Virus record (IMG/VR): IMGVR_UViG_3300030330_002422
Span: 3,574-67,573 of that record
Length of the DNA stretch: 64,000 nt
Direction: 5' to 3' (one strand)
Source: a virus
Lineage: Duplodnaviria > Caudoviricetes
Shown here: positions 33,539-52,863 of the stretch, one piece after another
Layout: every line of letters starts with the position of its first letter
Position numbering within the stretch: position 1 is the first letter of the stretch
Position numbers and translations under genes: made by a program
The notes under the pieces: generated by a model
Databases searched by the model: none
Told to the model about the DNA's origin: nothing
The model's input: only the letters and a program-made list of their open reading frames with translations

Positions 33539-33796
33539 TTAATCAATTAATACCACGTCAACCGAACGGATAACTTGGTATAATTTATCTTTATATTGTA
33601 CACCATGACCAGCGTGCTTGTCGTAATATACAACATCGTTATCTTTTATTCCCTCGACTAGATTACCAGCAGATAATACTTTTGCTTTTATATATCTATT
33701 ATCTTTATCTAGGTCTTCAGTCATTATAAGTCCTGCAACCTTTTTAGGTTCAGTCTTTAGTTTTTCTACGATCATGTAATGGTTAACTGCTTTCAT
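33539..33796 (-). CDS. groES: co-chaperonin GroES
   Basis: 85 aa; MKAVNHYMIVE..AGLIM..AKVLSAG..IKDNDVVYY; overlaps the groEL end. Confidence 0.85.
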   Translation of the reverse strand: MKAVNHYMIVEKLKTEPKKVAGLIMTEDLDKDNRYIKAKVLSAGNLVEGIKDNDVVYYDKHAGHGVQYKDKLYQVIRSVDVVLID

Positions 33797-35345
33797 TTAC
33801 TCTTACGTTTGAGATTACACAATCAGCTGATATAATAGTTGAAACTACACTTACAGCATTTTTAAGAGCAGACTTTGTAACTAACACTGGATCTATAATA
33901 CCATGTTTGATCATATCTACAGATTCACCTGTTACAACGTCTATACCATTACCATCGTACAGGTCTATATTCACATCTAAACCTGCATTATCTAATATTG
34001 TTTTGAAAGGAGATTTTATTGCATTTAATAAGACGTCCTCACCAATACTATTAGACTTTATACTTTTGGCAGCATTAAGAAGGGCTATTCCTCCTCCAGG
34101 AACGATCCCTTCTTTTAGTGCAGCCTTCGTAGCATAGATAGCATCCTCCACTCTATCTTTCTTTTCCTTAAGCTCAACCTTTGAGTTAGCGCCTACTCTA
34201 ACGATTCCTACGGATCCGGACAACGTAGCTAATCTATCTTCTAGCTTTCTTTTTAGAAAACCATTCTTTTCTTCAGCTATTTTTTTAACTAACTCAGCTA
34301 TTCTATCTTCTATTTCTGGAGTTTCTTCAAGGGTCAACACAGTGTGTTTATCGTCGGTAGAAGCAAACTCAGCTTCGCCTAAGTGATCTACAGTTATTAA
34401 ATCTAAATCATCTCCTAACTCTTCGTTGATCACTGTGGCTCCAGTAAGAATAGCAAGATCTTCAGTAGCATCTTTCTTTGTAGGACCAAAGCCTGGTAAA
34501 TCAATAATGTTAACCTTAATGTTACCTTTAACTTTGTTCATCATTAATGCAGACTTAACCTGTTGTGATACAGGTGCCACGATTAACAAGGCTCTACCTT
34601 TCTTGATGACATGCTCAAGAATCTTTTGTATCTTACGAATATTTGGTATTTCGCTTGATACAATTAACACGAGAGGATTATCTAGCTCGCATTTATGCTT
34701 TTCTGTATTAGTAACGAAGTTTGTCGATGTTAGACCACACTCTAGTTGAACTCCATCTACTAACTCTACGTAAGTGTCCTCTGTTTCCGATGTTTCCATT
34801 AATACAACGCCGTCCTTACCTACTTTAGTATATGCCTCAGCTATAATAGATCCTAATTCTTTATCATTGTTAGCTGATATAGTAGCAACGCTACTTAACA
34901 TATCTCCTTCTACACTTACTGATATATTTTCTAGGTATTCATTAACTTTGTCTGCAGCGGATTTTAAACCACTTTTAACTTCTCTTACAGATCTACAAGT
35001 TTTTATACCTTTTTCTGCTTCTTTTAATAGTGATTGAGCAAGGACGGTAGCTGTTGTAGTACCATCACCTGCTTCTTTCACTGTATTTTGTGCTGCTTCT
35101 TTGATAAGTGTTGCCCCTATGTTTTCAACCGGGTCAAACAAGACTACGCTTTGCGCAACGGTTACACCATCTTTTGTGATCACCGGTTTACCTCGTCCAT
35201 CTTCATATATTACGCACTTACCAGAAGCGCCTAATGTGGACTTAACGGCTTGAGCTAGCTTATCAACACCAGCTATAACTTTATCTTTAGCGGTTTTGCC
35301 AAAATTTAAGTCTTTGACAATCTCGCTAGGTAGATTATATTCCAT
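33783..35345 (-). CDS. groEL: chaperonin GroEL
   Basis: 520 aa; VKSTLGASG, ITKDGVTVA, AGDGTTTATVLAQ, KDRVEDA, GIVPGGG, GIIDPVLV; lacks the GGM tail. Confidence 0.97.
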   Translation of the reverse strand: MEYNLPSEIVKDLNFGKTAKDKVIAGVDKLAQAVKSTLGASGKCVIYEDGRGKPVITKDGVTVAQSVVLFDPVENIGATLIKEAAQNTVKEAGDGTTTATVLAQSLLKEAEKGIKTCRSVREVKSGLKSAADKVNEYLENISVSVEGDMLSSVATISANNDKELGSIIAEAYTKVGKDGVVLMETSETEDTYVELVDGVQLECGLTSTNFVTNTEKHKCELDNPLVLIVSSEIPNIRKIQKILEHVIKKGRALLIVAPVSQQVKSALMMNKVKGNIKVNIIDLPGFGPTKKDATEDLAILTGATVINEELGDDLDLITVDHLGEAEFASTDDKHTVLTLEETPEIEDRIAELVKKIAEEKNGFLKRKLEDRLATLSGSVGIVRVGANSKVELKEKKDRVEDAIYATKAALKEGIVPGGGIALLNAAKSIKSNSIGEDVLLNAIKSPFKTILDNAGLDVNIDLYDGNGIDVVTGESVDMIKHGIIDPVLVTKSALKNAVSVVSTIISADCVISNVRVNESS

Positions 35346-37083: not shown

Positions 37084-37388
37084 AGTGATATAATTACACG
37101 TAGTTATAGATAAATAAAAAATGTGACATTAGCTTGTTACTAGTATTACTTTACTACCTAGTGTCATACTTTTTGGTATTACAAATATAGAAGTATAGTG
37201 TAACCCCTATCCTACTGATTATCAACGCGTTACGAAACTCGTTTTGTTTAGGCCCACGGGCCCCGTTTTTCATATTTTTCTGTAAAAGTTTTCACGTTTT
37301 CATATTTATACAGTATATTGTATACATTTTTGACAAACTAACTACGGAATTAGTTCGATAATATATATGTAACTAAAAACAAATAACA
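37084..37388. promoter_or_regulatory. non-coding divergence region between late (-) and early (+) arms
   Basis: Transcription direction and T/A skew switch here; imperfect inverted repeat 37122-37168; GGCC-CACG-GGCC hairpin near 37251-37262. Confidence 0.6.
37333..37365 (+). promoter_or_regulatory. putative early promoter, copy 1
   Basis: ACAAACTAACTACG-N9-CGATAATATA. Confidence 0.75.
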
Positions 37389-37526
37389 ATGTCAAAATCA
37401 ATTATTAAATCAATTAAACAAACTAACTACACTACAATAATAACTACTAAAAGTAATATAGTAAAAGTCTACACATTTAAAACAAAAAAACAAAATAACG
37501 AATATTATAAATCATTAACAAACTAA
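37389..37526 (+). CDS. small early protein (45 aa)
   Basis: Hand-translated MSKSIIKSIKQTNYYTIITTKSNIVKVYTFK...; directly after promoter copy 1. Confidence 0.45.
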   Translation: MSKSIIKSIKQTNYTTIITTKSNIVKVYTFKTKKQNNEYYKSLTN

Positions 37527-37550
37527 ATACGAACTACTGTCGATAATATA
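37518..37550 (+). promoter_or_regulatory. putative early promoter, copy 2
   Basis: ACAAACTAAATACG-N9-CGATAATATA. Confidence 0.75.
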
Positions 37551-37593
37551 AATGTAACTAAAATAAATATTAACTAAATTAAATTAAATTATT

Positions 37594-37833
37594 ATGTCAA
37601 ACAAAATTAACAACTTAACTACAAAAAGATTTGTAATCAGAAAAACTCTAATTGGTACTAATACAGTAATAACATTTACTAACAAAAAAGGTGATACATA
37701 TTCTTACAATCACGACGAAGTATACAATACATTTTCAGATAAATTTGAGTCAATGAACTGTTTTCAAAAGTACAAAAGTTACACTAACTCAAATGTAATA
37801 CCAAAATTCTGTCGACACTTACAAATCAAGTAA
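37594..37833 (+). CDS. hypothetical early protein
   Basis: 79 aa after promoter copy 2; stop codon abuts the hammerhead. Confidence 0.65.
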   Translation: MSNKINNLTTKRFVIRKTLIGTNTVITFTNKKGDTYSYNHDEVYNTFSDKFESMNCFQKYKSYTNSNVIPKFCRHLQIK

Positions 37834-37885
37834 GATTCACTGATGAGACTTGAGTAGTCGAAACACCTTCTATGGTGTCTGAATC
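37834..37885 (+). ncRNA. type I hammerhead ribozyme
   Basis: GATTCA-CTGATGA-GACT(TGAGT)AGTC-GAAA-CACC(TTCTAT)GGTG-TC-TGAATC: full core, three perfect stems, GUC cleavage triplet (cut 3' of 37879). Confidence 0.92.
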
Positions 37886-37898
37886 AAAATATATAACT

Positions 37899-38030
37899 AT
37901 GAAAGTAATTTTTAACAACAAATTCAAAGTATGGACAGTAAATACTATACACACAAATCACATTTTATTCAGTCATAAGTCAAAAACTGAATGTTATGAG
38001 TGGATATTCTCAAAAATGAGTTATGTGTAA
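37899..38030 (+). CDS. small early protein (43 aa)
   Basis: Hand-translated MKVIFNNKFKVWTVNTIHTNHILFSHKSKTECYEWIFSKMSYV. Confidence 0.5.
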   Translation: MKVIFNNKFKVWTVNTIHTNHILFSHKSKTECYEWIFSKMSYV

Positions 38031-38130
38031 ACTGAGAGAGTCAGTGGAATACCTCAACACTAATTCTATTAACTAAACAAACTACCTACTTTACTAAACT
38101 AAATTATTAACTACTAAAATATAAAATACT

Positions 38131-38403
38131 ATGTGGAAAAATATAGATAAAACTAGAATGAAAAGAGAAGTATTAAAGAACATTTGGTTTAACTTAGACC
38201 ACTCAAATACTCCTGAAGTAAAACAAATAATTGTTACTATGGATTCTTATCCTGACAGGTTAGGTTATGGTAAAGTAAAGATAGAAAGTGATACTTCAAA
38301 CGGTTACTCTTCTTACACTTCACTAAGAGAAAATCCTTTCTTATACTTAAGTGAAAACAAAGAGTTTTTGTCAGGTGAATATGAGTTAATTGTAATAGAA
38401 TAG
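38131..38403 (+). CDS. hypothetical early protein
   Basis: 90 aa ORF. Confidence 0.55.
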   Translation: MWKNIDKTRMKREVLKNIWFNLDHSNTPEVKQIIVTMDSYPDRLGYGKVKIESDTSNGYSSYTSLRENPFLYLSENKEFLSGEYELIVIE

Positions 38404-38404
38404 T

Positions 38405-38437
38405 ACAATACAATTACGGACGAGTATCGATAATATA
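38405..38437 (+). promoter_or_regulatory. putative early promoter, copy 3
   Basis: ACAATACAATTACG-N9-CGATAATATA. Confidence 0.7.
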
Positions 38438-38480
38438 TACGTAAATAAAATAATAATAAACTTAAAAAATTAAACTAACT

Positions 38481-38717
38481 ATGTCTAATACTATTAAAAC
38501 TAATTCAATTCAAATTATTAAATTAAACAATAAAACTTATTTACCTTATCAATTACACCAACTACCAAAGTTCTTTGATAAGTACTCAACAGACTTCTTT
38601 TCTCTAAAAGGTTACTGTTATATAAACTTAAATGACCACCCAGATAACTTTAATTTAACTAATTTTAAAACAAGATTAACTTTTAATAAAGATATTCACT
38701 ACACAGAAAAAAGATAA
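38481..38717 (+). CDS. hypothetical early protein
   Basis: 78 aa ORF after promoter copy 3. Confidence 0.55.
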   Translation: MSNTIKTNSIQIIKLNNKTYLPYQLHQLPKFFDKYSTDFFSLKGYCYINLNDHPDNFNLTNFKTRLTFNKDIHYTEKR

Positions 38718-38749
38718 CAAATAAAATACGAACGAGTGAGGATAATATA
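38717..38749 (+). promoter_or_regulatory. putative early promoter, copy 4
   Basis: ACAAATAAAATACG-N9-GGATAATATA. Confidence 0.7.
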
Positions 38750-38781
38750 ATTGAATATAAACTTAATAAAATAAATAAATT

Positions 38782-38976
38782 ATGTCAAAGAAAATAATAA
38801 ATAAAGTCGTAGATGAAACAGTAGATACTATAATAGATAATATAGATGAAGTACTAGTAGATTATATGTTTGACTATGGTAACTATGAAGAGTCAGATGA
38901 CAAGTTCTTTAATGACAAAGAAGAAATGTTTACTAAAGTAGTAGAAGAATTATATAATAGAATAAAAAATAAATAA
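38782..38976 (+). CDS. small acidic early protein
   Basis: 64 aa, Asp/Glu-rich helical core. Confidence 0.55.
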   Translation: MSKKIINKVVDETVDTIIDNIDEVLVDYMFDYGNYEESDDKFFNDKEEMFTKVVEELYNRIKNK

Positions 38977-39089
38977 TATGTCAAGAATAAAAAACTATAT
39001 TAAAAGAGAGTATTTATCAATAATTTGTTTACTATATGTTATGTTTATAGTATCAGTAATGGTAAAAATACTAGTAAATTAAGTAAAAT

Positions 39090-39269
39090 ATGAAGTTTAC
39101 ACATACAACAATTAACTCTTATGGTACAACAACAAGAGAATACACTGTCAACAAAGATAATAAAGTGACAGAAAAAATAAAATTCACCCATGACGAAGTA
39201 GAGTTCGACAAGTGGTTTGAACAAGTGGAAAAAGAATATAAAGAACAACAAGAAAATAAATACTACTAA
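39090..39269 (+). CDS. small early protein (59 aa)
   Basis: Hand-translated MKFTHTTINSYGTTTREYTVNKDNKVTEKIKFTHDEVEFDKWFEQVEKEYKEQQENKYY. Confidence 0.5.
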   Translation: MKFTHTTINSYGTTTREYTVNKDNKVTEKIKFTHDEVEFDKWFEQVEKEYKEQQENKYY

Positions 39270-39270
39270 T

Positions 39271-39534
39271 ATGAAAATAACACTATCAAAATGGAAAGGT
39301 AATACAGTATACTCGTTATACGTAGAAAAGTTCGGTGAAGACCATCACTTGGGTTTCATAAATTCAAAAGAAATTGACAAATTGTTACCAAATGATATAG
39401 AAGATAAGTATGATGCTATACACAAACCGACTCCAGAACAAGAAAGTCTTAATATGGCGATCGGAGCGATGATAAAACAAGATAGAACCTACTTCACAGA
39501 CGATAGAGGTAATCATAGAGACGGTTTAGACTAA
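39271..39534 (+). CDS. hypothetical early protein
   Basis: Start moved to ATG 39271 (MKITLSKWKG), just after the previous stop. Confidence 0.5.
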   Translation: MKITLSKWKGNTVYSLYVEKFGEDHHLGFINSKEIDKLLPNDIEDKYDAIHKPTPEQESLNMAIGAMIKQDRTYFTDDRGNHRDGLD

Positions 39535-39600
39535 TGGGTGCGTGGATAGTACTAGTACTAATAACTATAATGATAGGTAGTTATCTACTAGATGAGTAAT

Positions 39601-39633
39601 ACAAACAAAATACGATAAGTAGTCGATAATATA
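39601..39633 (+). promoter_or_regulatory. putative early promoter, copy 5
   Basis: ACAAACAAAATACG-N9-CGATAATATA. Confidence 0.75.
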
Positions 39634-39654
39634 TATGACAAAAGACTGTTAAAT

Positions 39655-39867
39655 ATGAAATGTATAAAATGTAAAAGTATAATACCTGACGGACGAGTTA
39701 GACTTGGTTACAAAACATGTGTCAACTGTTCTACTACAGAAAGATATGGCTGTGTACCCATCACTTATCATAAAACTGGTAACTCTATCCAGATTATGTC
39801 GGCTAGTCAAGCTGCTGAGATAGCTAAGTCAACTCGCCGTAAAGGTTATGGAACAATGTTAAGATAA
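39655..39867 (+). CDS. DksA/TraR-type C4 zinc-finger protein
   Basis: CIKCKSIIPDGRVRLGYKTCVNC matches CxxC...IP..R......CxxC. Confidence 0.65.
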   Translation: MKCIKCKSIIPDGRVRLGYKTCVNCSTTERYGCVPITYHKTGNSIQIMSASQAAEIAKSTRRKGYGTMLR

Positions 39868-39878
39868 AATAAAGTAAT

Positions 39879-40034
39879 ATGAAATACGAAATAACATACG
39901 AAGATTGGATAGGTATGGGTTGTATTGAAGAAATATCTGCTACTGATGAAAAAGAAGCTGTTATGAAGCTACAACTAAAACTTATAGACGAAGGTGATTT
40001 AATGACTAAACTAATAGAAACCAAAGAATTATGA
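39879..40034 (+). CDS. small hypothetical protein (51 aa)
   Basis: Hand-translated MKYEITYEDWIGMGCIEEISATDEKEAVMKLQLKL...; ATGA overlap with the next gene. Confidence 0.5.
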   Translation: MKYEITYEDWIGMGCIEEISATDEKEAVMKLQLKLIDEGDLMTKLIETKEL

Positions 40035-40570
40035 AAACAGTATACAAAGGCGACCCAAGATACGAGGCTATCAAGGAAAAAATGGATATGCTAGGTATAA
40101 AAGACACTAGCTCTCCAAGACAAGTAAAAAATGGTACAATTGAGTGGGAATTACCAATTAAAAACAACTGGCCAAACCATAACCCAGAGTATATCAGAGT
40201 AGCATCTTTTGCTAGTGGTTATGTAAGAAACCAAAACAGTGGTTACAGTAACTACCAATTAAATAAAAGATGTATGAATGAACCGGAATACTACAAAAGC
40301 TACAAGTGGGTTGATGGTAAACAGGTACACGATGGTAAGTATTACAAGTTTCAGACAAGAGGTTGTAAACTAATACCAATAGAAATAGATAGATTAGAGT
40401 ACATGTTAAAATACTGCATCAAAAACTACTTCATAAAACATGCTAATCAAGTAGCAAATGGTGATTTTTATCCAAAATGGATGTATGAGGACAAATGTAA
40501 TGAGTGTGATAGTAATTCACAACCAGAAGTAAAAGTAATAGTAAATGGACGTAGATATAACGTAATATGA
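40031..40570 (+). CDS. hypothetical protein
   Basis: 179 aa ORF. Confidence 0.6.
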   Translation: MKTVYKGDPRYEAIKEKMDMLGIKDTSSPRQVKNGTIEWELPIKNNWPNHNPEYIRVASFASGYVRNQNSGYSNYQLNKRCMNEPEYYKSYKWVDGKQVHDGKYYKFQTRGCKLIPIEIDRLEYMLKYCIKNYFIKHANQVANGDFYPKWMYEDKCNECDSNSQPEVKVIVNGRRYNVI

Positions 40571-40797
40571 AAAAGAAAATATTTTGGACCGATGAGGCTC
40601 ATTTACACTTCCACAGAAATGGTAAACAATTAAGAGGTGGTTTGTGGTTTAGAGCATTTGACTTGGTTAAGTTTATGAAAAAAGTAGAAGAAGAAGCGGG
40701 TGAAGTAGTAGGATTATGCTTCGAAGGTAATAATGTAGATGTAATAATAAAAGAAAATGAAACTGACAAACAAACAGAAGAGCAAAATCAGGCGTGA
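40567..40797 (+). CDS. hypothetical protein
   Basis: 76 aa ORF, ATGA overlap. Confidence 0.55.
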   Translation: MKKKIFWTDEAHLHFHRNGKQLRGGLWFRAFDLVKFMKKVEEEAGEVVGLCFEGNNVDVIIKENETDKQTEEQNQA

Positions 40798-40897
40798 AGT
40801 TGATATTGAGTTAGGTAATTTACCTTTTAAGCAAAAAATACATAAAAATAAAAAGAAATACAATAGAAAAAACAAACACAAAGACAAATGGGATTAG
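40757..40897 (+). CDS. ArfA-like small basic protein (46 aa)
   Basis: Hand-translated MKLTNKQKSKIRREVDIELGNLPFKQKIHKNKKKYNRKNKHKDKWD; F....K.KK.Y.RK.KH spacing resembles ArfA. Confidence 0.4.
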   Translation: MKLTNKQKSKIRREVDIELGNLPFKQKIHKNKKKYNRKNKHKDKWD

Positions 40898-41025
40898 CAA
40901 TTGGAGCAATAATTTTAGTTTATTTAATTATTAAAGCTGCTTCGGCGGTAGAACAAGATAAGAGACATAAAGAATTTATTAAAAACTTAGAAAAATATGA
41001 CAAAAAAGAGGAAACTAAACAGTAA
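40888..41025 (+). CDS. small membrane-anchored protein (45 aa)
   Basis: MGLAIGAIILVYLIIKAAS... one hydrophobic segment. Confidence 0.4.
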   Translation: MGLAIGAIILVYLIIKAASAVEQDKRHKEFIKNLEKYDKKEETKQ

Positions 41026-41134
41026 AAACCCAAAGTACATGGACAAAAGCCGGTTAACTGAAAGAGAAGTACTTAAAAAAGTATTGTTCAAAGAGGTTAA
41101 AGGTGCTAAAATTTATGGGGTTTGGTATAAATAG
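40997..41134 (+). CDS. small hypothetical protein (45 aa)
   Basis: MTKKRKLNSKNPKYMDKSRLTEREVLKKVLFKEVKGAKIYGVWYK. Confidence 0.5.
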   Translation: MTKKRKLNSKNPKYMDKSRLTEREVLKKVLFKEVKGAKIYGVWYK

Positions 41135-41156
41135 CAAAATTGCTATACACAAATAT

Positions 41157-41323
41157 ACGAGCGTGGCGCGTGAGATGTGTAGTCGAAAAGTGAGTACCTC
41201 GCCTAGAACAGGTGTATGATACTGTCAAAGTATCACGAGCAAATAACTATCGACATCTTACACAGTGAATTGGCCCGATGAGTGATGGTAACGAAACTGT
41301 GTGTACTCACTTGGCCACCTCGT
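41157..41323 (+). ncRNA. candidate pseudoknotted structured RNA upstream of tRNA-Arg
   Basis: Non-coding GC-elevated island. Stems 41157-67/41314-23, 41170-78/41253-61, 41188-97/41303-12 (10 bp perfect, crossing), 41217-23/41229-35, 41262-66/41296-300. Confidence 0.65.
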
Positions 41324-41329
41324 TTTTAT

Positions 41330-41403
41330 GGCCGAATAGCTCAACTGGATAGAGCAACAGCCTTCTAAGCTGTAGGTTGCAGGTTCGAGTCCTGCTTCGG
41401 TCA
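41330..41403 (+). tRNA. tRNA-Arg (anticodon TCT)
   Basis: GGCCGAA/TTCGGTC acceptor, D-arm TAGCTCAACTGGATAGAGCA, anticodon arm ACAGC-CTTCTAA-GCTGT, T-arm GCAGG-TTCGAGT-CCTGC; no encoded CCA. Confidence 0.95.
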
Positions 41404-41435
41404 CAAACCAATTACGATTGGTGAACGATAATATA
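41403..41435 (+). promoter_or_regulatory. putative early promoter, copy 6
   Basis: ACAAACCAATTACG-N9-CGATAATATA. Confidence 0.75.
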
Positions 41436-41460
41436 TATGTAACAAATAAAATTAAATGAT

Positions 41461-41850
41461 ATGCAAGAACTTGAAAACAAAAAAGCTGCGTTAGAGCTTT
41501 TACAAAATGAAACTAACGAAAAGTTGCAAGATTATAGGCAACAAATATCTATTTTACAAAAACAAATAGATGATTACAACAAACCAGAGTTAACACCAAT
41601 GTATATGGACAAGGTATACGAGGCAATTGAAACTGCTGTTGATGGTTTTGACTTTGACGATACTGATAATTACGACATTGAGTACGGTATTGATTATGAT
41701 GGTAGAGTACATTGTGAGAGCTTTGGTTTTTGCAACGCGAGTGATTTAGTACAAGAAGTCGCAGATGAAGTAATGAAACTATTTAGAGAGGCTGAATGCC
41801 CTGAAGAATTAGATACAACAGAACCTGATAACCATAAACCAGTAGAATAA
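41461..41850 (+). CDS. hypothetical protein (coiled coil plus acidic domain)
   Basis: 129 aa ORF. Confidence 0.6.
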   Translation: MQELENKKAALELLQNETNEKLQDYRQQISILQKQIDDYNKPELTPMYMDKVYEAIETAVDGFDFDDTDNYDIEYGIDYDGRVHCESFGFCNASDLVQEVADEVMKLFREAECPEELDTTEPDNHKPVE

Positions 41851-41851
41851 T

Positions 41852-42085
41852 ATGAAGACATTATATGACAAACTCAAACCAGAGTATAAAAACAAATTAG
41901 AAAGCAATAAGTTCGAGTACGAATCTTCTATTAAAGCTATAGAAGACACGCTTAAAACAAACCATAGTTGGTATAGTCTGAGTATGCATGATATATCTAA
42001 CATCCTTGTATTCACTGATGTTACATTATACTCTATAACTAGTTCAGACCTTATGTTTGGTGAAATGTTTTTTAACGAAGATTAA
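41852..42085 (+). CDS. hypothetical protein
   Basis: 77 aa ORF. Confidence 0.55.
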   Translation: MKTLYDKLKPEYKNKLESNKFEYESSIKAIEDTLKTNHSWYSLSMHDISNILVFTDVTLYSITSSDLMFGEMFFNED

Positions 42086-42096
42086 ATTAAATAGAT

Positions 42097-42306
42097 ATGA
42101 TAGTATTAACAGTATTAGACTTTGAAGACGGATTAGTGTATCAGTATCATATAGATATTACGCTTAATTCAAAATCAGACAGACTCAATAGACTAGGAGA
42201 GCTAGACTTTGAAAAAATTATTATTGACCAAGGTCATAGACTAGATGATTGCGAGTGGATGTCACATAGTGACGACACTATTAACAAGATTAAAATTGAA
42301 TTATGA
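42097..42306 (+). CDS. hypothetical protein
   Basis: 69 aa ORF. Confidence 0.55.
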   Translation: MIVLTVLDFEDGLVYQYHIDITLNSKSDRLNRLGELDFEKIIIDQGHRLDDCEWMSHSDDTINKIKIEL

Positions 42307-42620
42307 AAAATACTAATGAAATAGAAAAGCAATTGCAGCGCAAAGCTGATAATTATTTAGAACAAAAAGCAAAAGAAATTCAAAACATACTGAAAGAAGT
42401 TAAAGAATTTGCAGGTGTAAGAGCTAGTTTTTATGACTATATTGCAGACTATACCGAATTTAAACATACTGACGCACCAAAAGCAGATGATTCTTGCAGG
42501 TTTACAGACTTCGGTAACATGAAAGATAAGTTTCACAAAGAGTTAAAGCTTAACTTTAAGAATGCTTTAGTGGCTAAATATACAAAAGAATTAATTACTA
42601 AACTAGAAATATTTGAATAA
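42303..42620 (+). CDS. hypothetical protein
   Basis: 105 aa ORF. Confidence 0.55.
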   Translation: MKNTNEIEKQLQRKADNYLEQKAKEIQNILKEVKEFAGVRASFYDYIADYTEFKHTDAPKADDSCRFTDFGNMKDKFHKELKLNFKNALVAKYTKELITKLEIFE

Positions 42621-42621
42621 A

Positions 42622-42873
42622 ATGAAAGAAAATAAATTACCAAAATGGTTCAACGGTGAAGTGTATGCCGAAGGAGCCGAAGTAACAAACAGATTTGGTG
42701 GTGACAGTTGCTACCTAAATGCAGAAGAGCTTAGTATGTATGACTTTGTCATAGGCGCTAGTAATATGTATGAAATGGGTATGCACCACGATAAATTAGT
42801 AACCGATCTTAGAAAAGGTCTTGACTGGTTTAGAAAAAATAACGCGGAAGCATATATGAAATTATTAGATTAA
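42622..42873 (+). CDS. hypothetical protein
   Basis: Start moved to ATG 42622; ...DLRKGLDWFRKNNAEAYMKLLD. Confidence 0.6.
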   Translation: MKENKLPKWFNGEVYAEGAEVTNRFGGDSCYLNAEELSMYDFVIGASNMYEMGMHHDKLVTDLRKGLDWFRKNNAEAYMKLLD

Positions 42874-42874
42874 C

Positions 42875-43147
42875 ATGGATATAACAGGAGAACAAATAGA
42901 AAATTATATTATCAACGAGCTTGATAGTAAACCAAGACACAATTGCATGGCTTTAGCTGAGGCTATTAACCATATAGCAGACGAAGTCGAATATGACTCG
43001 TTTGCTTTAATGCAGTTGTTGTTAGAAAATAAACCAATAGATGCTTTGCATACACATAGCTATGGCTTTCACACGGCTAACGGTAGGTCGTTAATTGAAG
43101 GTATGCAAAACGCTTATTATACCGAAGTACAATTTTATGTCGACTAG
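42875..43147 (+). CDS. hypothetical protein
   Basis: 90 aa ORF. Confidence 0.55.
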   Translation: MDITGEQIENYIINELDSKPRHNCMALAEAINHIADEVEYDSFALMQLLLENKPIDALHTHSYGFHTANGRSLIEGMQNAYYTEVQFYVD

Positions 43148-43502
43148 AGCACAAATTAGATTTGCAACAAGAGAAGAAGGTGTATCGTTTAGCGAACAAC
43201 CAAATGCTATACATGCACAGTTTTACAAACACAGCGATGGTTATCCAGAAGGATTAGGTGTAGATATAGCCAAGTCATTACTAGATTCAACCAAAATATA
43301 TAATTGGGAAATAGAACACTTAGATACAAAACATAGCGATCTTGAGTACATATATTATATATGGCAAGCACCACAGAAAACTACATGGATAAGTATATTT
43401 GAAGTAAGGCCATTTGTAGACCAAGTTGGCGAGTGTATATTTGTAGGTGAACCACAAAAACTAATTGATAAATACAAACAAAATACGGACTATGACGGAT
43501 AA
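43137..43502 (+). CDS. conserved phage protein (YxHxDGYP family)
   Basis: Start moved to ATG 43137 (MSTRAQI...QFYKHSDGYPEGLG). Confidence 0.55.
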   Translation: MSTRAQIRFATREEGVSFSEQPNAIHAQFYKHSDGYPEGLGVDIAKSLLDSTKIYNWEIEHLDTKHSDLEYIYYIWQAPQKTTWISIFEVRPFVDQVGECIFVGEPQKLIDKYKQNTDYDG

Positions 43503-43506
43503 TATA
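43474..43506 (+). promoter_or_regulatory. putative early promoter, copy 7
   Basis: ACAAACAAAATACG-N9-GGATAATATA. Confidence 0.7.
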
Positions 43507-43509
43507 AAT

Positions 43510-43776
43510 ATGACAGATGAAACAATAGATAAATTAGTTAACAAGCTAGTTGACAGATTAGCTGGCGCTATGATAAAAAGAATATATGGCGTCGAACAAC
43601 AAGAGGCTAGAGACTCAATGTCTTATTATGCTGATAATATTGACGACCATCACGTTGGTGAGTTAGCTAGGCTAATGACACTAATGAATATATACGAAGA
43701 AAGAGAAGAGTATGAAAAGTGTGCAGCTGTAAACAAACACTTAAAAAGAATAAATAAAATAGTAGACAAATTATGA
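43510..43776 (+). CDS. hypothetical protein with C-terminal UVR-like helix pair
   Basis: EREEYEKCAAVNKHL resembles the UvrB/C motif; start moved to ATG 43510. Confidence 0.45.
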   Translation: MTDETIDKLVNKLVDRLAGAMIKRIYGVEQQEARDSMSYYADNIDDHHVGELARLMTLMNIYEEREEYEKCAAVNKHLKRINKIVDKL

Positions 43777-44627
43777 GAAAAAAACCAATGCTGGCATATC
43801 CAGTCAGCGACAAACCAATAGACTACAACAATACCGTATTCATGCAACCAAAGCTTGATGGCGTACGTTGTCTTATACAAGCAGAAAAGCTACCATTTGA
43901 TATGGGTTATGATGTTGTAGCTTACTCACGTACAGGTAAAGAGTGGAAAAATATTGACCACATACTAGAAAATCTAGTACCATTTTTTACAAAACACCCA
44001 AATGTTATACTCGACGGCGAATTGTATAATCACGATTTTAGAGATGATTTTGAATCTATCATATCTATGGTCAGAAAAACAAAACCAACAGCAGAGGACA
44101 GGCTTAAATCAGCTGAGAATGTACAATTTCATTGTTATGATATTGTAGACGAAACAACGCCATTTGTAGACCGCATCAAGTTTATATATGATAACTTGAG
44201 AGACTCTTATTGTGTTAGAACTGTCGAGTCAGAATCTGTTCTCAATGATGTAGATGCTAAATCATTTCATAAATATTGTCTAAAACAAGGTTACGAAGGC
44301 TCTATACTACGTACCAACGAAGTTTACAAATGTGGTAGATCATGGTCATTGCGTAAATTCAAAGACTTTCATGACGCTGAAGCTAAACTAGTTAGCTGGG
44401 TCGAAGGTAAAGGCAAACGTAAAGGTACAATCGGCAAGTTTATAGCGGTTGATGCTGATGGCAACGAGTTCGGTATGCCAGTTATGGACAATTTCAAAAA
44501 GTTACAAACAATGTTCAAAGAAATGCAGTCATGGGTTGGTAAAGAAGCTACGTTCACATATTTTGAGCGTACAAAAGCTGGCTCGTACAGACACCCTTTG
44601 TTTAAAGCAATTAGAGATTACGAATAA
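43773..44627 (+). CDS. ATP-dependent DNA ligase
   Basis: Motif I QPKLDGVR, III ILDGELY, IIIa FHCYDI, IV GYEGSILR, V LRKFK, OB domain RHP. Confidence 0.93.
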   Translation: MRKKPMLAYPVSDKPIDYNNTVFMQPKLDGVRCLIQAEKLPFDMGYDVVAYSRTGKEWKNIDHILENLVPFFTKHPNVILDGELYNHDFRDDFESIISMVRKTKPTAEDRLKSAENVQFHCYDIVDETTPFVDRIKFIYDNLRDSYCVRTVESESVLNDVDAKSFHKYCLKQGYEGSILRTNEVYKCGRSWSLRKFKDFHDAEAKLVSWVEGKGKRKGTIGKFIAVDADGNEFGMPVMDNFKKLQTMFKEMQSWVGKEATFTYFERTKAGSYRHPLFKAIRDYE

Positions 44628-45103
44628 TGAATATATTTTACTTACACCAAAACCCAGAAAAAGCCGCTAGATACCAATATAATAAGCATGTAGTCAAGAT
44701 GATACTTGAGTCTGCTCAAATGTTGTGTACTGCACACCACTGTATTATGGGTGACGATGCTGATGTACCATACAAACCAGCGCATAAAAACCACCCATCA
44801 ACTAAATGGGCTAGACAATCAGGTGAGAATTACACCTGGTTATACAGACACATGATAGAGCTTGGTAAAGAATATGAAAAACGTTATGGTAAAAAACATT
44901 TATCTATAATTAAGTGTGAAGACCCGTTGTCTATATTACCAGGAGGTATATTAGAAACAGGATTAACTGAAATGCCGCAGTGTATGCCTGATGAATACAA
45001 AGATAAGTGTAGTGTACAAGCCTACTGGAATTATTACATAGGCGAAAAACACACAGTAGCAAACCCTAAAACCGAAAAAATATATGAACAAAGACCTTAT
45101 TGA
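44627..45103 (+). CDS. pyrimidine-dimer DNA glycosylase (endonuclease V-like)
   Basis: MNIFYL..KHVVKMILESAQMLCTAH..HKNHPSTKW..NYTWL..EYEKRYGKKH..MPQCMPDEY. Confidence 0.75.
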   Translation: MNIFYLHQNPEKAARYQYNKHVVKMILESAQMLCTAHHCIMGDDADVPYKPAHKNHPSTKWARQSGENYTWLYRHMIELGKEYEKRYGKKHLSIIKCEDPLSILPGGILETGLTEMPQCMPDEYKDKCSVQAYWNYYIGEKHTVANPKTEKIYEQRPY

Positions 45104-45190
45104 AAGAATTAGAGTATTTAATAATATTAAATACGGTACTAATGATAATGAAACAAGAATTATAATAGCAAAATTAAAACCTCAAACCAA

Positions 45191-45211
45191 GGGGACTGTG
45201 ACAACAGCCCC
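45191..45211 (+). other. GC-rich hairpin upstream of putative replication protein
   Basis: GGGG-A-CTGT-GACA-ACAG-CCCC; contains TGTGACA, also found at 37122. Confidence 0.4.
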
Positions 45212-45235
45212 TAAATAGAATATAATAACAGGCTT

Positions 45236-45856
45236 ATGTCATACGAAAGAAATTTGAAATACCTAAATGACAGGAGATTAGTTTATAGACAACATCCTAA
45301 ATCAGATAAACCAACTATTGATACTAAAGATTTTATGTATTACGAGCATGGTACTTATCAATGTTACGAATTATTTAGGTCATCTGCTAAAATAACAACT
45401 TATAAATCTCTAAAATGGCATTTACTTGTATTATGGTACTTAAACCCTAATCTTACGCCAGATGATTTTACTGCTTTAGCGGAATACATAGTACATAAGC
45501 CAAACGGGTTTGTTAGTTTTAACATATCAGAACGTTTATTAGAAAAAGTAATATATGAGGTTAGCATGTCTGACCTTGATAGACCACCTAAAAATAAATT
45601 ACGTAAAGTAATATTCAAACCATTTACAGGTCTAACCAAACAAGAAAAATTATCTATCGTTGGTCAATTGGTAGGTCAAGGCCCAAGAGTCTGTTCTGAC
45701 GACATTTATCAATGTATGATAGATATGCATGACATGGGCAAAAAGATTACGATAGGACGCATCGCAGGACTGTTAGACTGTTCATCACGTACAATACACA
45801 GAAACATGTGTAATGAACTTAAAAAAGAAAAAGAATTACTAAATCAATCACTATGA
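45236..45856 (+). CDS. putative replication/DNA-binding protein (PriCT-like helical region plus C-terminal HTH)
   Basis: C-terminal ITIGRIAGLLDCSSRTIHRNM HTH; central helical region. Confidence 0.45.
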   Translation: MSYERNLKYLNDRRLVYRQHPKSDKPTIDTKDFMYYEHGTYQCYELFRSSAKITTYKSLKWHLLVLWYLNPNLTPDDFTALAEYIVHKPNGFVSFNISERLLEKVIYEVSMSDLDRPPKNKLRKVIFKPFTGLTKQEKLSIVGQLVGQGPRVCSDDIYQCMIDMHDMGKKITIGRIAGLLDCSSRTIHRNMCNELKKEKELLNQSL

Positions 45857-46599
45857 AAAAATATGATCAAGATAACTATTCCAAGTATAAGAACGATGTT
45901 AACGCAGCGATCAAGAACTTAGATAAACCTTGGGAGTTATTAACAAGAGATAACCTGATAATAAAGTTTATGCCTCTTGTAGAAAACTTAGCTAGAAAAT
46001 TTTCAACATCACATCAAGCTACAGGTGTTATGTCAATAAACGACTTGATACAGTTTGGCCACTTAGGTTTAATAAAAGCTGTAGATAAAATATTATGGGC
46101 TACAATAAAAGAAGCTAAAGACCCTGAAAAAAGATTAAAATCTTTTCTAGCAAAAAGAATTAAAGGTGCAATACGTAGAGGTATTGATAATACAAGAGGT
46201 ACAATGCGTATACCAGAGCACAAACTAAATGAAATGAGAAAATCAGATGACGATAAAAAATCTTTATTATATAACTCTGTGTTTACATCTGTAGAAGACT
46301 TAATAAAAGATAATGAAGATATAGTATATGAAATACCAGATATTAACAATGATACTAATTATGATGCTTTGTGTAAGTTCTTAGTTGATAAGTTAGATTC
46401 AACGCTTACAGCTAAAGAAGCTAGCATAATAAAACTTAGTTACGGGTTAAATTGTGAGAAACATTCTGCTAAAGAAATAGCAACAATATTAAACATAAAG
46501 GGTGATAGCGCTTATGTAAGAATATCACAGCTAAAAAGACAAGCTATTGACAAGTTAAGAAATACATTAGACCACTCGCAAGTGCTTGATTATCTGTAA
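45853..46599 (+). CDS. phage sigma-70-family RNA polymerase sigma factor
   Basis: Region 2 (LVENLARKF..DLIQFGHLGLIKAVDK..KRIKGAIRR) and region 4 HTH (LTAKEASIIKLSYGL..SAKEIATIL..RISQLKRQAIDKLR). Confidence 0.85.
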   Translation: MKKYDQDNYSKYKNDVNAAIKNLDKPWELLTRDNLIIKFMPLVENLARKFSTSHQATGVMSINDLIQFGHLGLIKAVDKILWATIKEAKDPEKRLKSFLAKRIKGAIRRGIDNTRGTMRIPEHKLNEMRKSDDDKKSLLYNSVFTSVEDLIKDNEDIVYEIPDINNDTNYDALCKFLVDKLDSTLTAKEASIIKLSYGLNCEKHSAKEIATILNIKGDSAYVRISQLKRQAIDKLRNTLDHSQVLDYL

Positions 46600-46660
46600 G
46601 TTACTAAGTTAAATAATAAAATTCTCGTGTGATAATATATATACACCAAATACCAATATT

Positions 46661-47224
46661 ATGAAAGAATTAAACCAAAAACTAGCTACAATTCAGACTG
46701 AATTAAAAGCTAAAAAATCGAGTTACAACTCGTTCGGTAAGTATCATTTCAGGAAAGCCGAAGACATCTTAGAGGCAACAAAGCCTTTTTTATTAAAACA
46801 CAAAGTGTCTGTTACTATAAACGAAGAAATAATAGCTACAGACCCAGTTCCTACACTTAAATCAACAGCAACAATTACAGATGGTCAAGATGCTATACAC
46901 GCGACCGCTATTGTCGGCGTAGACCTAAATCAAAAAGGTATGCAAACAGCACAACAATTTGGCGCAGCGTCTTCTTATGGAAAGAAATATGCATTAGGTA
47001 ATCTATTTTTAATTGATGACACTCAAGACGCCGATGCTAACAATGATCACGGTAAATCTAAAGCTGTTACTAAAATTAAACAAGCTGCTAAACCAGCTAT
47101 AACCAAAGAACAAATAGCTAAAGCTAAGGAGTATATGGCTGCAGGAGGTAATATTGAGGCTATTGAAACTAAATACAAATTGACAAATGAACAAAAAGCA
47201 GATATTACAAAGGCTAAAAAATGA
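46661..47224 (+). CDS. erf: ERF-family ssDNA-annealing protein
   Basis: KLATIQTELKAKKS..NSFGKY.FR..EDI; QQFGAASSYGKKYALGNLFLIDDTQDAD. Confidence 0.85.
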   Translation: MKELNQKLATIQTELKAKKSSYNSFGKYHFRKAEDILEATKPFLLKHKVSVTINEEIIATDPVPTLKSTATITDGQDAIHATAIVGVDLNQKGMQTAQQFGAASSYGKKYALGNLFLIDDTQDADANNDHGKSKAVTKIKQAAKPAITKEQIAKAKEYMAAGGNIEAIETKYKLTNEQKADITKAKK

Positions 47225-47915
47225 CGAAGACTATTACGGTGATTTTGGTAATCAGTTTTTATCTAATTCACACGTTGGTAAACTACTGAAAGATCCGTTA
47301 AACGTCTTCAAGCCTAGCAAACCATCACCAGCATTTTTAGTTGGTGGGTACTTTCACACTTGTATACTAGAACCAGATAAAATAGACAAGTATAGAGTAA
47401 TAAAGTCTAGCACTAGAAATACAAAAGAGTATAAAGATGTTAGTGGTGGCGAGCTATGTCTACTACAAAAAGAGGTAGACGAAATCGAGTTGATGAGAGA
47501 TAAACTAATGGCTAATGATATATGTAGAGATTTAGTACAAGGAAACACGGAGTATGAAGTTCCAGGTGTTACAGATTTATTTAACAATAAATGGAAAGGT
47601 AAAGCAGATATTATTAACCACGATGAAAAACTAGTAGTCGATTTAAAAACAACAGCAGACATTGACAAGTTTCAATGGTCAGCGTCTAAATTTAACTATG
47701 ATTCACAGGCTTATATTTATAGTAAGTTATTTGGATATGAGATGTTATTTATAGTTATAGACAAGACGACACACCAAATAGGTATGTTTGATTGTTCACC
47801 AGAGTTTTATAAACGAGGTGAAGACAAGGTGAGTAAAGCAAGTGACGCTTATGACTTGTTTTACAAGACCAAGGACTTTGATCCTAAACAGTATTTCATA
47901 AGCAAAACCCTTTAA
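47187..47915 (+). CDS. PD-(D/E)XK exonuclease (RecE/exonuclease VIII-like)
   Basis: AFLVGGYFHTCILEP; WKGKADII..VVDLKTT; YDSQAYIY; adjacent to erf. Confidence 0.8.
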   Translation: MNKKQILQRLKNDEDYYGDFGNQFLSNSHVGKLLKDPLNVFKPSKPSPAFLVGGYFHTCILEPDKIDKYRVIKSSTRNTKEYKDVSGGELCLLQKEVDEIELMRDKLMANDICRDLVQGNTEYEVPGVTDLFNNKWKGKADIINHDEKLVVDLKTTADIDKFQWSASKFNYDSQAYIYSKLFGYEMLFIVIDKTTHQIGMFDCSPEFYKRGEDKVSKASDAYDLFYKTKDFDPKQYFISKTL

Positions 47916-47925
47916 ACCAATTATT

Positions 47926-48093
47926 ATGGCAAGAACAAAAACAAAAGTATGTGACGTTACAGGATTAAAAACTTCTGAAAAGAATTTTTACAAAAATCAA
48001 AGTCATGTTAAAGCTGTAGACAATATTAGAAGATCAACGTCTGCGACTAAAGAACAATTACAAAGAATGTTTAACCAATTAATGAATTACTAA
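47926..48093 (+). CDS. small hypothetical protein (55 aa)
   Basis: Hand-translated MARTKTKVCDVTGLKTSEKNFYKNQSHVKAVDNIRR... Confidence 0.55.
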   Translation: MARTKTKVCDVTGLKTSEKNFYKNQSHVKAVDNIRRSTSATKEQLQRMFNQLMNY

Positions 48094-48095
48094 TT

Positions 48096-48404
48096 ATGGC
48101 AAGTATTATTAAAACTAGTATTAATCTTAACAACATACCTAAAGATAAAATCTTTGAGGGTAAAAAAGGTAAATACTTACCGATTACAATTACACTGAAC
48201 AATGAGCCAGATCAGTTTGGCAACCAAGGTCCAGTTGTAGTTGAACAGACAAAAGACGAAAGAGATGCTAAGATGGAAAAAACGTATCTCGGTAACGTCA
48301 AAGTAGTTTGGACTGACGGAAACAATGTTGACACAGCTCCAAGAGATAATAACCATACAGCTGCAGCGCCTGCTCCTGCTACAGCTGAAGATTTACCGTT
48401 TTAA
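48096..48404 (+). CDS. putative single-stranded DNA-binding protein
   Basis: 102 aa, beta-rich with flexible tail ending EDLPF; precedes primase-helicase. Confidence 0.6.
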   Translation: MASIIKTSINLNNIPKDKIFEGKKGKYLPITITLNNEPDQFGNQGPVVVEQTKDERDAKMEKTYLGNVKVVWTDGNNVDTAPRDNNHTAAAPAPATAEDLPF

Positions 48405-48407
48405 TAG

Positions 48408-50117
48408 ATGATTCAAGAGATCAATGGATTTTTGATTGATAAGTACAATCAATACGACCTAAAAGATGGTGCAACGCAAGGGATTTGTCCCTTGTGTTCC
48501 CACAATAGGAAACCTAAAAATCAGAAGCTGCAATGCGCTTCTTATGATTGGGAACGTGGTCTCGGTACATGTCACAATTGTGATACTAGTTTTCAACTTC
48601 ATACCTATCAACGCAAGGGTGCAAGCGAGAAGGTTTACACTAGACCTACTGAGCCCACTGACTTAAACGAGGTAGGTACGAAAGTTGAAGAATGGTTTAA
48701 ATCACGTGGTATATCATCAGCTTCCCTTCGTGACTTAAAAGTTACCACAGGTGAAGAATATATGCCACAGACAGGTAAACTTGAGAATACAATTCAATTT
48801 AACTATTACATGGGTGATCAACTCATAAACGTTAAATACCGAGATGGACGTAAGAACTTTAAGCTTTATAAAGGAGCTGAAAAAGTATTCTACAACATCA
48901 ACAGTATTGTAGGTTATGATACTTGTGTAATAGTTGAAGGCGAAATGGATGTGTTAGCGTTACACGAGGCTGGTATACCAAATGTTATATCAGTTCCAAA
49001 TGGCGCTACGCTAAACCGTAACAATCTAGATTACTTAGATAATTGTATTGACTACTTTGATGATAAAACTAAAATAATAATCGCTGTTGATGCAGACGAG
49101 CCTGGCCAAATGCTACAACGTGAGCTTGTTAGACGTCTTGGAGCAGAAGTATGTTACATTATAGATTTTAATGGTAACAAAGACGCTAACGACTACTTGC
49201 TTGAGCATGGTACAGAAGCGCTACGTAATGCTATACACACTGCAAGACCAGTACCGTTAGAAAACGTATCAACACTAAAAGATATAGAAGATGAACTTAA
49301 AGACTTTGTTAAAAATGGATTTAAACCAGGATTTCAAATCGGACTTAAAAACTTTGATTCTATTTTCAGTACTTACACCGGTCAGTTTATTACTGTTACC
49401 GGCGTACCTAGCTCTGGGAAGTCTGACTTCGTTGACCAGATGGTTGTGGGATATAACCAACTCTATGGTTGGAAGACTGCGTATGCTAGTCCTGAAAACC
49501 AACCAGTCTATTTGCACGCGCACAAGCTCATGAGAAAGCATTGGCAAGATATGCCAAGTGTGGGTGATATAGGCGGCAATAAATGGGAGCAGGTATCAAA
49601 CCATGTTAATGATAATTATTTCTTCATTGATATGGATAAGTACAACTTAGAAGCTGTATTACGCAAAGGCGCTGAGCTTGTTAAACGTAAGGGTATTAAA
49701 TGTTTAGTTCTAGACCCATTTAATAAGATCAGAGACACAAACGCGGTGTCAGATGATGTAAACCGTTATACAATGGATTATCTGGCTAAAATCGAAGCTT
49801 TTTGTAAAAAGTACGATGTGTTAACCTTTATAGTTGCTCACCCAACCAAAATGTACAAAGGTCAAGATGGCAAGATGGAAGAGCCAACAATGTACAATAT
49901 CAAAGGTGGTGGTGAGTGGTACGACGCTAGTTATCATGGTTTGTTAGTGCACAGAGATTATGAAGCTAAAACAACTAAGGTTAAAGTACTTAAAGTTAAG
50001 TTTCAAAATCTTGGTGAAAATGGTGCTGAATCCTTTTTTACATGGGAACCGAGATCTGGTAGCTTTGTTCCACACGAAGACGTTGTTACTGAAACAGAGC
50101 CAATGCCCTGGGAATAA
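48408..50117 (+). CDS. primase-helicase (T7 gp4/Twinkle-like)
   Basis: Zn ribbon CPLC..CHNC, Toprim IVEGEMD..AVDADEPG..KDAND, Walker A TGVPSSGKS, LVLDP, HPTK. Confidence 0.92.
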   Translation: MIQEINGFLIDKYNQYDLKDGATQGICPLCSHNRKPKNQKLQCASYDWERGLGTCHNCDTSFQLHTYQRKGASEKVYTRPTEPTDLNEVGTKVEEWFKSRGISSASLRDLKVTTGEEYMPQTGKLENTIQFNYYMGDQLINVKYRDGRKNFKLYKGAEKVFYNINSIVGYDTCVIVEGEMDVLALHEAGIPNVISVPNGATLNRNNLDYLDNCIDYFDDKTKIIIAVDADEPGQMLQRELVRRLGAEVCYIIDFNGNKDANDYLLEHGTEALRNAIHTARPVPLENVSTLKDIEDELKDFVKNGFKPGFQIGLKNFDSIFSTYTGQFITVTGVPSSGKSDFVDQMVVGYNQLYGWKTAYASPENQPVYLHAHKLMRKHWQDMPSVGDIGGNKWEQVSNHVNDNYFFIDMDKYNLEAVLRKGAELVKRKGIKCLVLDPFNKIRDTNAVSDDVNRYTMDYLAKIEAFCKKYDVLTFIVAHPTKMYKGQDGKMEEPTMYNIKGGGEWYDASYHGLLVHRDYEAKTTKVKVLKVKFQNLGENGAESFFTWEPRSGSFVPHEDVVTETEPMPWE

Positions 50118-50389
50118 TGTGGAAGTTTAAAAAGAATACTGGTAGAAATCCTGGTGCACATTCATATACTAAAGAAGACATAAAGCACGTTGGTTGGTGT
50201 ATGAATAAAAACATATCAGTAGCTGTTTGCCCGTATTGGGAAGGTTCAAGCGATGAATGGAAGATAGAAATTAAAATTAACAAAAAAGTACATTTGGACC
50301 CAGCTGTTTACAAAGCTGATGAAGCTTATAAAAAAATGTATGAATATTATAAATACTACTATGACAAATACAATAAAACATCTAAGTAA
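50117..50389 (+). CDS. hypothetical protein
   Basis: 90 aa, TAATG coupled. Confidence 0.55.
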   Translation: MWKFKKNTGRNPGAHSYTKEDIKHVGWCMNKNISVAVCPYWEGSSDEWKIEIKINKKVHLDPAVYKADEAYKKMYEYYKYYYDKYNKTSK

Positions 50390-50490
50390 AACAACTATTA
50401 AACTAACTCGTTTAGGTGAATCTGTTATACTAACAGAAATAAAACATCCTAAAAAAGAAAAAGTTTACTATAAAATAAACAACAAATTTT

Positions 50491-51977: not shown

Positions 51978-51978
51978 T

Positions 51979-52290
51979 ATGAGCGATAGAGAAATTATGG
52001 ACGGCAAAAACGGTATCGTAGCTAGAAAGTCTTACGGCTTTCGCGACCCAGTTGTTAAAAACGTAGTTGACAAATTTATTAAAAGATCTGATGTAGGTTA
52101 TGAAAAATATAACAATACATTAGATGATGAACGTAGATTTAAAATGAAAGACCTTCAAGGTTATTTAAACGATATACAAGAAGAATTAATGGATGCTATA
52201 TTGTATATTCAAACTGCTAGAGAAGAGCTTCGTGATTTATCTGAAGAAGCTTTAATCGATAAGTTTAATACCGATGAAGAAGAAATATAA
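51979..52290 (+). CDS. second MazG-fold/all-alpha dNTP pyrophosphatase-like protein
   Basis: RSDVGYEKYNNTL..YLNDIQEELMDAILYI (EExxD). Confidence 0.5.
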   Translation: MSDREIMDGKNGIVARKSYGFRDPVVKNVVDKFIKRSDVGYEKYNNTLDDERRFKMKDLQGYLNDIQEELMDAILYIQTAREELRDLSEEALIDKFNTDEEEI

Positions 52291-52862: not shown

Positions 52863-52863
52863 T

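Follow-up and report, generated by a model that had tools for sequence, protein, structure and literature searches.

A predicted self-cleaving type I hammerhead ribozyme between two small phage genes belongs to an abundant phage hammerhead subfamily

Analysis of a 64,000-nt stretch (hereafter the window) of an IMG/VR phage record of 67,573 bases identified a 52-nt type I hammerhead ribozyme at 37834-37885 on the + strand, which could be read from the sequence without a single mismatch and which lies between ORFs 2 and 3 of a rightward gene module, on the same strand as the module. The copy belongs to a sharply defined and abundant phage hammerhead subfamily, and from its sequence we infer that it is a genuine self-cutting RNA, with the predicted cleavage site given in Table 1. 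Its function is probably that of a cis-acting element within a polycistronic early transcript, which it would split into separate messages.

Table 1. Positions of the ribozyme, its parts and the surrounding features in the window
Feature	Coordinates	Strand	Evidence
Near-identical promoter-like copy, before first ORF of module	37331-37375	+	sequence
Promoter-like repeat ACAAACTAAAT, 12 nt, CGATAATATAAATGTAAC, before 79-aa ORF	37517..37565	+	sequence
Upstream 79-aa ORF, TAA stop ending at 37833	37594..37833	+	ORF list
Whole ribozyme with conserved flanks A 37833 and AA 37886-37887	37833..37887	+	R1 72.5 bits, E 5e-17; descriptor; fold
Stem I GAUUCA/UGAAUC, 6 bp	37834-37839 with 37880-37885	+	sequence, fold
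Catalytic core strand CUGAUGA (C3 to A9)	37840..37846	+	sequence; invariant in alignment A1
Stem II GACU/AGUC, 4 bp, pentaloop UGAGU	37847-37850 with 37856-37859 (loop between)	+	sequence, fold
Core GAAA (G12 A13 A14, A15.1)	37860-37863	+	sequence
Stem III ACACC/GGUGU, loop UUCUAU	37863-37867 with 37874-37878	+	sequence, fold, R1
Cleavage-site nucleotide C17 = C37879; predicted cut between 37879 and 37880	37879	+	sequence, fold, R1
Leader of downstream message after predicted cut, 19 nt, 5'-OH	37880..37898	+	sequence
Downstream 43-aa ORF, small conserved protein family	37899..38030	+	homologue alignment
GroEL-like chaperonin (Cpn60_TCP1, E 6.5e-58)	33783-35345	-	domain match
Sigma-70-family factor (regions 2 and 4)	45853-46599	+	domain match

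The core contained C3 U4 G5 A6 N7 G8 A9 and G12 A13 A14, together with an H17 that is not G (here C). The pairs adjacent to the core, none of which may be mispaired under the rule given in the Methods of PMC3088659, were all formed (G37847-C37859, 10.1-11.1; A37839-U37880, 1.1-2.1; A37863-U37878, 15.1-16.1), and the topology was that of type I, with stems II and III closed by loops and stem I open, its strands being outermost. Both the 52-mer and a 161-nt native context adopted the hammerhead as their minimum-energy fold, and the free energy of the 52-mer was ordinary for its composition (z = -1.2). An earlier note on this DNA had described an intact type I hammerhead with a CUGAUGA/GAAA core, starting right after the stop of the preceding gene, co-oriented with its neighbours and cut after C37879. 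The motif was borne out by the parse, the fold and a covariance model (R1, 72.5 bits), the TAA ends on the base preceding the ribozyme, every ORF from 37389 to 54717 lies on the + strand, and the predicted cut falls at the place named, with the ATG at 37899 lying 19 nt beyond the new end. The stem lengths given there (6, 4 and 4 bp) held for stems I and II, while counting A15.1-U16.1 brings stem III to 5 pairs.

A descriptor scan of both strands of the window returned this copy as the single complete hammerhead, and a relaxed descriptor gave 4 matches per 300 shuffles when applied to shuffled windows. At the gathering score, Rfam reported no hammerhead family for the window, and a whole-window scan by E-value returned no hammerhead, twister, pistol, hatchet or other ribozyme. 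When the scan was confined to 300 nt around the locus, the best match was RAGATH-1-hammerhead (RF03152) at 23.7 bits and E 0.069 against a cut-off of 56.3, and Hammerhead_3 (RF00008), the only member of clan CL00010 listed, reached 14.4 bits against a threshold of 48.5. Since Rfam likewise missed clear hammerheads of the same subfamily at 7 of 7 other loci tested, its silence reflects a gap in model sensitivity and is not evidence against the motif. The comparison with Rfam hammerhead models that had been suggested earlier stayed below threshold for the curated models.

Relatives were collected by scanning IMG/VR contigs with the pattern CTGATGA-N4-TGANT-N4-GAAA, which occurred at at least 120 loci. 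Among the matches listed, 143 in number, 102 had a perfect 4-bp stem II and 92 were complete hammerheads, 76 of them distinct. Alignment A1 comprised 42 of the distinct phage hammerheads, mutually unrelated sequences whose short stem III allowed unambiguous alignment. Pairing in A1 was 100%, 12 of its 15 pairs varied on both sides with covariation in all three stems, and the covariation score was 0.805 compared with 0.04-0.08 for slid controls; the pairing itself was in part a product of the filter, the variety of pairs was not. These 42 sequences, with the window copy left out, served to build covariance model R1. Its sole match, in the window as in the entire 67.5-kb record, was 37830-37891 at 72.5 bits and E 5e-17.

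The subfamily shares several traits outside every search pattern used. Stem I was exactly 6 bp in 91 of the 92 complete hammerheads among the matches listed, and its outer pair was always G-C in A1. Among the distinct members in the same matches, the base before stem I was A in 75 of 76, and the two bases after it were A in 76 of 76 (+1) and 68 of 76 (+2). The subfamily is further defined by a stem II of 4 bp that starts with G-C, present in 21 different strand combinations (matches listed), and by the pentaloop UGANU of the scan pattern. The window copy carries all of these traits: A37833, which is the last A of the upstream TAA, the pair G37834-C37885, A37886 and A37887, the GACU/AGUC stem II and the loop UGAGU. 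Some other contigs of the subfamily hold 2-3 hammerhead copies.

Could the match nonetheless be an inactive chance resemblance to the hammerhead consensus? Sub-threshold scores of the curated Rfam models and the unremarkable free energy of the 52-mer would suit that reading; against it stand the E-value of the independent R1 model, the agreement with subfamily invariants outside the core (A, outer G-C, AA), none of which had been part of any search pattern, and the equal blindness of Rfam to all seven clear subfamily loci. A chance origin is excluded for practical purposes.

The invariant A, G-C and AA around stem I may form a clamp that serves as the partner of the stem II pentaloop, in a tertiary contact that would allow fast cleavage at cellular Mg2+. 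In the full-length crystal structure of the type I hammerhead of Schistosoma mansoni, the stem II loop contacts unpaired nucleotides of stem I, resulting in fast cleavage (PMC6155905). The window copy has the same topology, and its geometry, with 4 bp plus a loop placed opposite unpaired As after 6 bp, would be compatible with such a contact. The Schistosoma receptor is an internal loop of stem I, whereas the putative receptor here consists of the single-stranded A/AA flanks of a stem I that ends at 6 bp, and the loop sequences of the two are unrelated.

Comparison with the curated families located the copy more precisely. It shares the type I topology, with open stem I, and an identical core with Hammerhead_1 (RF00163, clan CL00010) but falls below the gathering score of that model. 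The RF00163 seed consists mostly of eukaryotic repeats in which stem I is longer and has internal loops. Its short stem I and the string GAGACUUG...CGAAAC are shared with RAGATH-1 (RF03152); that model, however, combines a one-pair stem II with an upstream hairpin, whereas stem II is a full 4-bp helix here and the apparent upstream 'hairpin' falls within the final codons of a gene and lacks conservation. Membership in RAGATH-1 was ruled out by this full helix and by the score reported above. Two viral contigs (L007:2604-2624 and L016:1906-1926) contain hammerheads whose stem II is a single pair (G ACUUGG. C) and in which an upstream CCAAG can pair with the loop CUUGG; these look like true pseudoknotted RAGATH-1-like forms and are distinct from the window copy and its subfamily with a 4-bp stem II.

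The position of the ribozyme relative to its neighbouring genes was also regular within the subfamily. Among the matches listed, an upstream ORF could be recognised for 66 members, and in 48 of these its stop codon reached 0 to 10 nt inside the ribozyme, with preferred offsets of 0, +6 (TAA within stem I) and +10 (a core TGA). The next ORF had its ATG 18-32 nt past the cut in 59 of 76 members, in most cases preceded by a ribosome binding site of the GGAG type. The window copy, with a stop offset of 0 and a leader of 19 nt, falls inside both ranges. This stop-ribozyme-start spacing could simply reflect the compactness of phage genomes.

The same spacing bears on a reading in which the ribozyme is a translation-coupled switch, unfolded by the terminating ribosome, so that cleavage and downstream expression report translation of the upstream gene. 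In its favour, the stop codon abuts stem I here and the offsets are 0 to +10 in most subfamily members; abutting stops are partly automatic, however, because CUGAUGA contains TGA in two frames. A further point in its favour is that UCAAGU at 37825-37830 is complementary to ACUUGA at 37848-37853 and could compete with stem II, but other members sharing this stem II do not conserve the match, which is probably due to chance, and the minimum-energy fold in context retains the hammerhead. We consider a switch of this kind improbable. For the same lack of conservation, a pseudoknot between UCAAGU and the ACUUGA of stem II was rejected as a feature of the element.

Downstream of the predicted cut, the leader opens with the 6 nt that make up the 3' strand of stem I in the uncut RNA. 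The leader is A/U-rich, and in the fold of 37880-37960 the first 49 nt are unpaired. The ORF that follows starts at ATG 37899 and not at the in-frame ATG 37872 within stem III: its homologues, found with a 52-aa in-frame extension as the query, occur in loci L140 (60% identity), L153 (35%) and L212, have an equivalent Met start and share the motif ...FSHK..ECYEWIF.K. A structured non-coding RNA downstream of the ribozyme found no support, the region being unstructured in the fold and encoding a conserved small protein. The upstream 79-aa ORF had homologues at 72 loci in viral contigs, at 49-79% identity. A PHROG search with the 79-aa and 43-aa ORFs gave no match, and BLAST against deposited phage genomes found no close cultured relative; its matches were confined to short stretches, at 70%, between a neighbouring gene and Pelagibacter and Methylophilales phages.

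The phage itself is a marine one, with a host probably among the Bacteroidota, as deduced from three features together, namely a crAss-type muzzle C-terminal domain in a protein of 3054 aa, a type IX secretion sorting domain in another protein, and the GroEL-like chaperonin. The rightward module, called early here from its position, opens with roughly a dozen small ORFs that have no assigned function, followed by genes for DNA ligase, the sigma-70-family factor, ERF recombinase, primase-helicase, thymidylate synthase and ribonucleotide reductase. A pair of near-identical promoter-like repeats of the form ACAAACTAAAT-N12-CGATAATATAWATGTAAC precedes its ORFs 1 and 2. The motif GATAATATA was ten-fold over-represented in the window (15 copies against 1.35 expected) and clustered in the rightward module, with 9 copies on the + strand between 37357 and 46639; apart from the two repeats ahead of ORFs 1 and 2, the + positions are 38429, 38741, 38836, 39625, 41427, 43498 and 46631. 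We presume that the transcript carrying the ribozyme starts at the repeat ahead of the 79-aa ORF, a putative promoter. No GATAATATA-type motif was present in the gap between the 79-aa and 43-aa ORFs, because the ribozyme fills that gap.

Several other elements of the region were recorded. The promoter-like repeat is unlike the usual sigma-70 or Bacteroidota -7/-33 consensus, and the same motif stands ahead of early ORFs in many sister phages. The small-ORF module contains a single tRNA gene (41330-41403, +, 72.5 bits) 3.4 kb past the ribozyme, and the GATAATATA motif at 41427 comes directly after it. A conserved inverted repeat of about 45 nt (GTGACA...GTTACTA...TGTCA) lies in the divergent intergenic region at 37124-37170; the same element also follows the 79-aa homologue in four relatives (L165, L175, L184 and L194), and in two others (L181 and L182) it comes after the hammerhead. 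It could be an operator or an origin.

We then compared the junction across the sister phages. Only 3 of the 72 loci with a homologue of the 79-aa ORF carried such a ribozyme anywhere in the region fetched. L181 and L182, with a CUGACGA core that is permitted at position 7, were the only relatives with a hammerhead at the same junction, and in L172 the hammerhead lay 1.3 kb deeper in the early region. The clamp and the GACU/AGUC stem II of the window copy recur in each of the three. The ribozyme was thus absent from 69 of 72 loci with the upstream gene, as it was from 3 of 3 with a homologue of the downstream gene, and a linkage to the flanking ORF families, which the earlier note had proposed to check, was rejected. 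Its presence at only 3 of 72 related loci indicates that it is dispensable for this phage group. In the three loci with a 43-aa homologue, a promoter-like motif GATAATA(T)A occupies the place of the ribozyme ahead of that gene, indicating that a separate 5' end just upstream is a recurring arrangement. In other relatives the junction after the 79-aa gene held a promoter-like motif, GTGTATAGCA repeats, a GTGACA inverted repeat, terminators or a tRNA-like element.

Two of these alternative occupants recur in sets of sister phages. The first is a conserved element of about 110 nt, ending in a tRNA-like minihelix, that occupies the hammerhead junction in about 21 sister phages (alignment A2; loci L140, L143, L144, L146-L149, L153, L196-L199, L201, L202, L204, L205 and L208-L211), at a distance of about 80-145 nt from the end of the 79-aa homologue. 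It consists of an acceptor-like stem, then AATGGT, then a canonical T arm GTGAGTTCGATTCTCAC, and the acceptor-like stem covaries (TGTAGT/ACTACA, GACAT/ATGTC, GTGTG/CACAC, GTACG/CGTAC). ARAGORN found no tRNA at this element, and the Rfam match was confined to the T arm of tmRNA. The element may be a processing signal for RNase P/Z that does the same job as the ribozyme. The second, GTGTATAGCA, occurs as tandem copies a few bases apart, 20-40 nt after the 79-aa homologue, in nine loci (L150, L151, L160, L166, L167, L171, L177, L179 and L193).

The patchy distribution is what would be expected if an active ribozyme were a neutral or selfish passenger, a small mobile unit hopping among phage intergenic gaps with no regulatory benefit: the three sister copies sit at two different junctions, the gap after the 79-aa gene is hypervariable (promoter-like motifs, repeats, terminators and the tRNA-like element in relatives), and the stem II GACU..AGUC recurs in otherwise unrelated contigs. 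We saw neither flanking repeats nor an associated mobility gene, however, and every conserved position is intact, including the flanks outside the core; moreover, the regular placement relative to stop and start codons across the 76 members (matches listed) suggests selection on context. On balance, a passenger is a less than likely explanation, albeit one to be taken seriously.

Division of an early transcript, the reading preferred here, had been put forward in the earlier note; it is the best-supported function, as judged from genomic context, and fits the published hypothesis that hammerheads of phages and prophages process long phage transcripts to mRNAs that each carry one gene (Perreault et al. 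2011, PMC3088659; also PMC6765202). Some similar prophage hammerheads were shown to cleave in vitro and in E. coli (PMC3088659). The window copy shares its catalytic core and its arrangement of three stems with the phage and prophage examples (PMC3088659; reviews: PMC6155905 and PMC6765202), and like them it is intergenic, lies beside small ORFs of unknown function, is oriented with the genes and has the same proposed role (PMC3088659). It differs from the clusters of Perreault 2011, in which 2 or 3 ribozymes bracket one or more genes, in being single in the 67.5-kb record.

In the proposed sequence of events, the rightward transcript would be read presumably from the promoter-like repeat at 37517-37565, and the ribozyme would fold once 37833-37887 has been synthesised and cut itself after C37879. 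The upstream piece, with the 79-aa gene, would retain its stop codon, and its 3' end would be the compactly folded ribozyme, bearing a 2',3'-cyclic phosphate, while the downstream piece would begin with a 5'-OH and an unstructured, A/U-rich leader of 19 nt followed by the 43-aa gene. The outcome would be two physically separate messages, with lifetimes and translation uncoupled. The further suggestion that a 5'-OH end would protect the downstream mRNA from decay found no support in the analyses performed here. RNase J1 reportedly degrades the 5'-OH product of the glmS ribozyme in Bacillus, so that the direction of any 5'-OH effect would depend on the host.

The same end chemistry, a 2',3'-cyclic phosphate and a 5'-OH, would suit RtcB-type ligation, by which the ends could feed into circular or spliced RNA, and RtcB is present in a Bacteroidota control genome. 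A search for RtcB encoded by the phage found none, and the whole phage record holds one hammerhead and no other ribozyme family. Because the ribozyme is single, one cut would give one cyclic-phosphate end and one 5'-OH end, which could be rejoined only to each other, and no RNA segment bearing both kinds of end would be freed. Spliced or circular products of clustered prophage hammerheads have been sought, and none were found (Perreault et al. 2011, PMC3088659). The suggestion of RtcB-ligatable RNA is therefore weak, with one ribozyme in the genome and no phage RtcB, and we regard it as highly improbable.

Beyond the splitting of the transcript, we tentatively propose, as a possibility that we rate below an even chance, that the ribozyme stands in for an early promoter, of the GATAATATA type in sister phages, in providing the short-leader message of the 43-aa gene, and that the A, G-C and AA clamp on a fixed 6-bp stem I, together with a fixed 4-bp stem II capped by a U-N-A-N-U pentaloop, would constitute the compact tertiary lock of a large phage subfamily missed by Rfam. 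The explicit subfamily consensus with invariant nucleotides outside the core appears modestly new. The demonstration that curated models miss the subfamily, and the interchange of ribozyme and promoter-like motif at the same gene, are modestly new as well.

The ribozyme in the window is an ordinary element of an already described kind and alone adds little, whereas the comparative material around it is useful. Reviews treat the function of hammerheads in bacteria and phages as unsettled (PMC6155905, PMC6765202). A clean definition of the subfamily, with its invariant non-core nucleotides, provides a testable tertiary contact, and Rfam-based annotation under-detects an abundant class of phage hammerheads. 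The sister phages that have a promoter-like motif, a tRNA-like element or nothing at the junction are natural controls for the effect of cleavage on the neighbouring genes.
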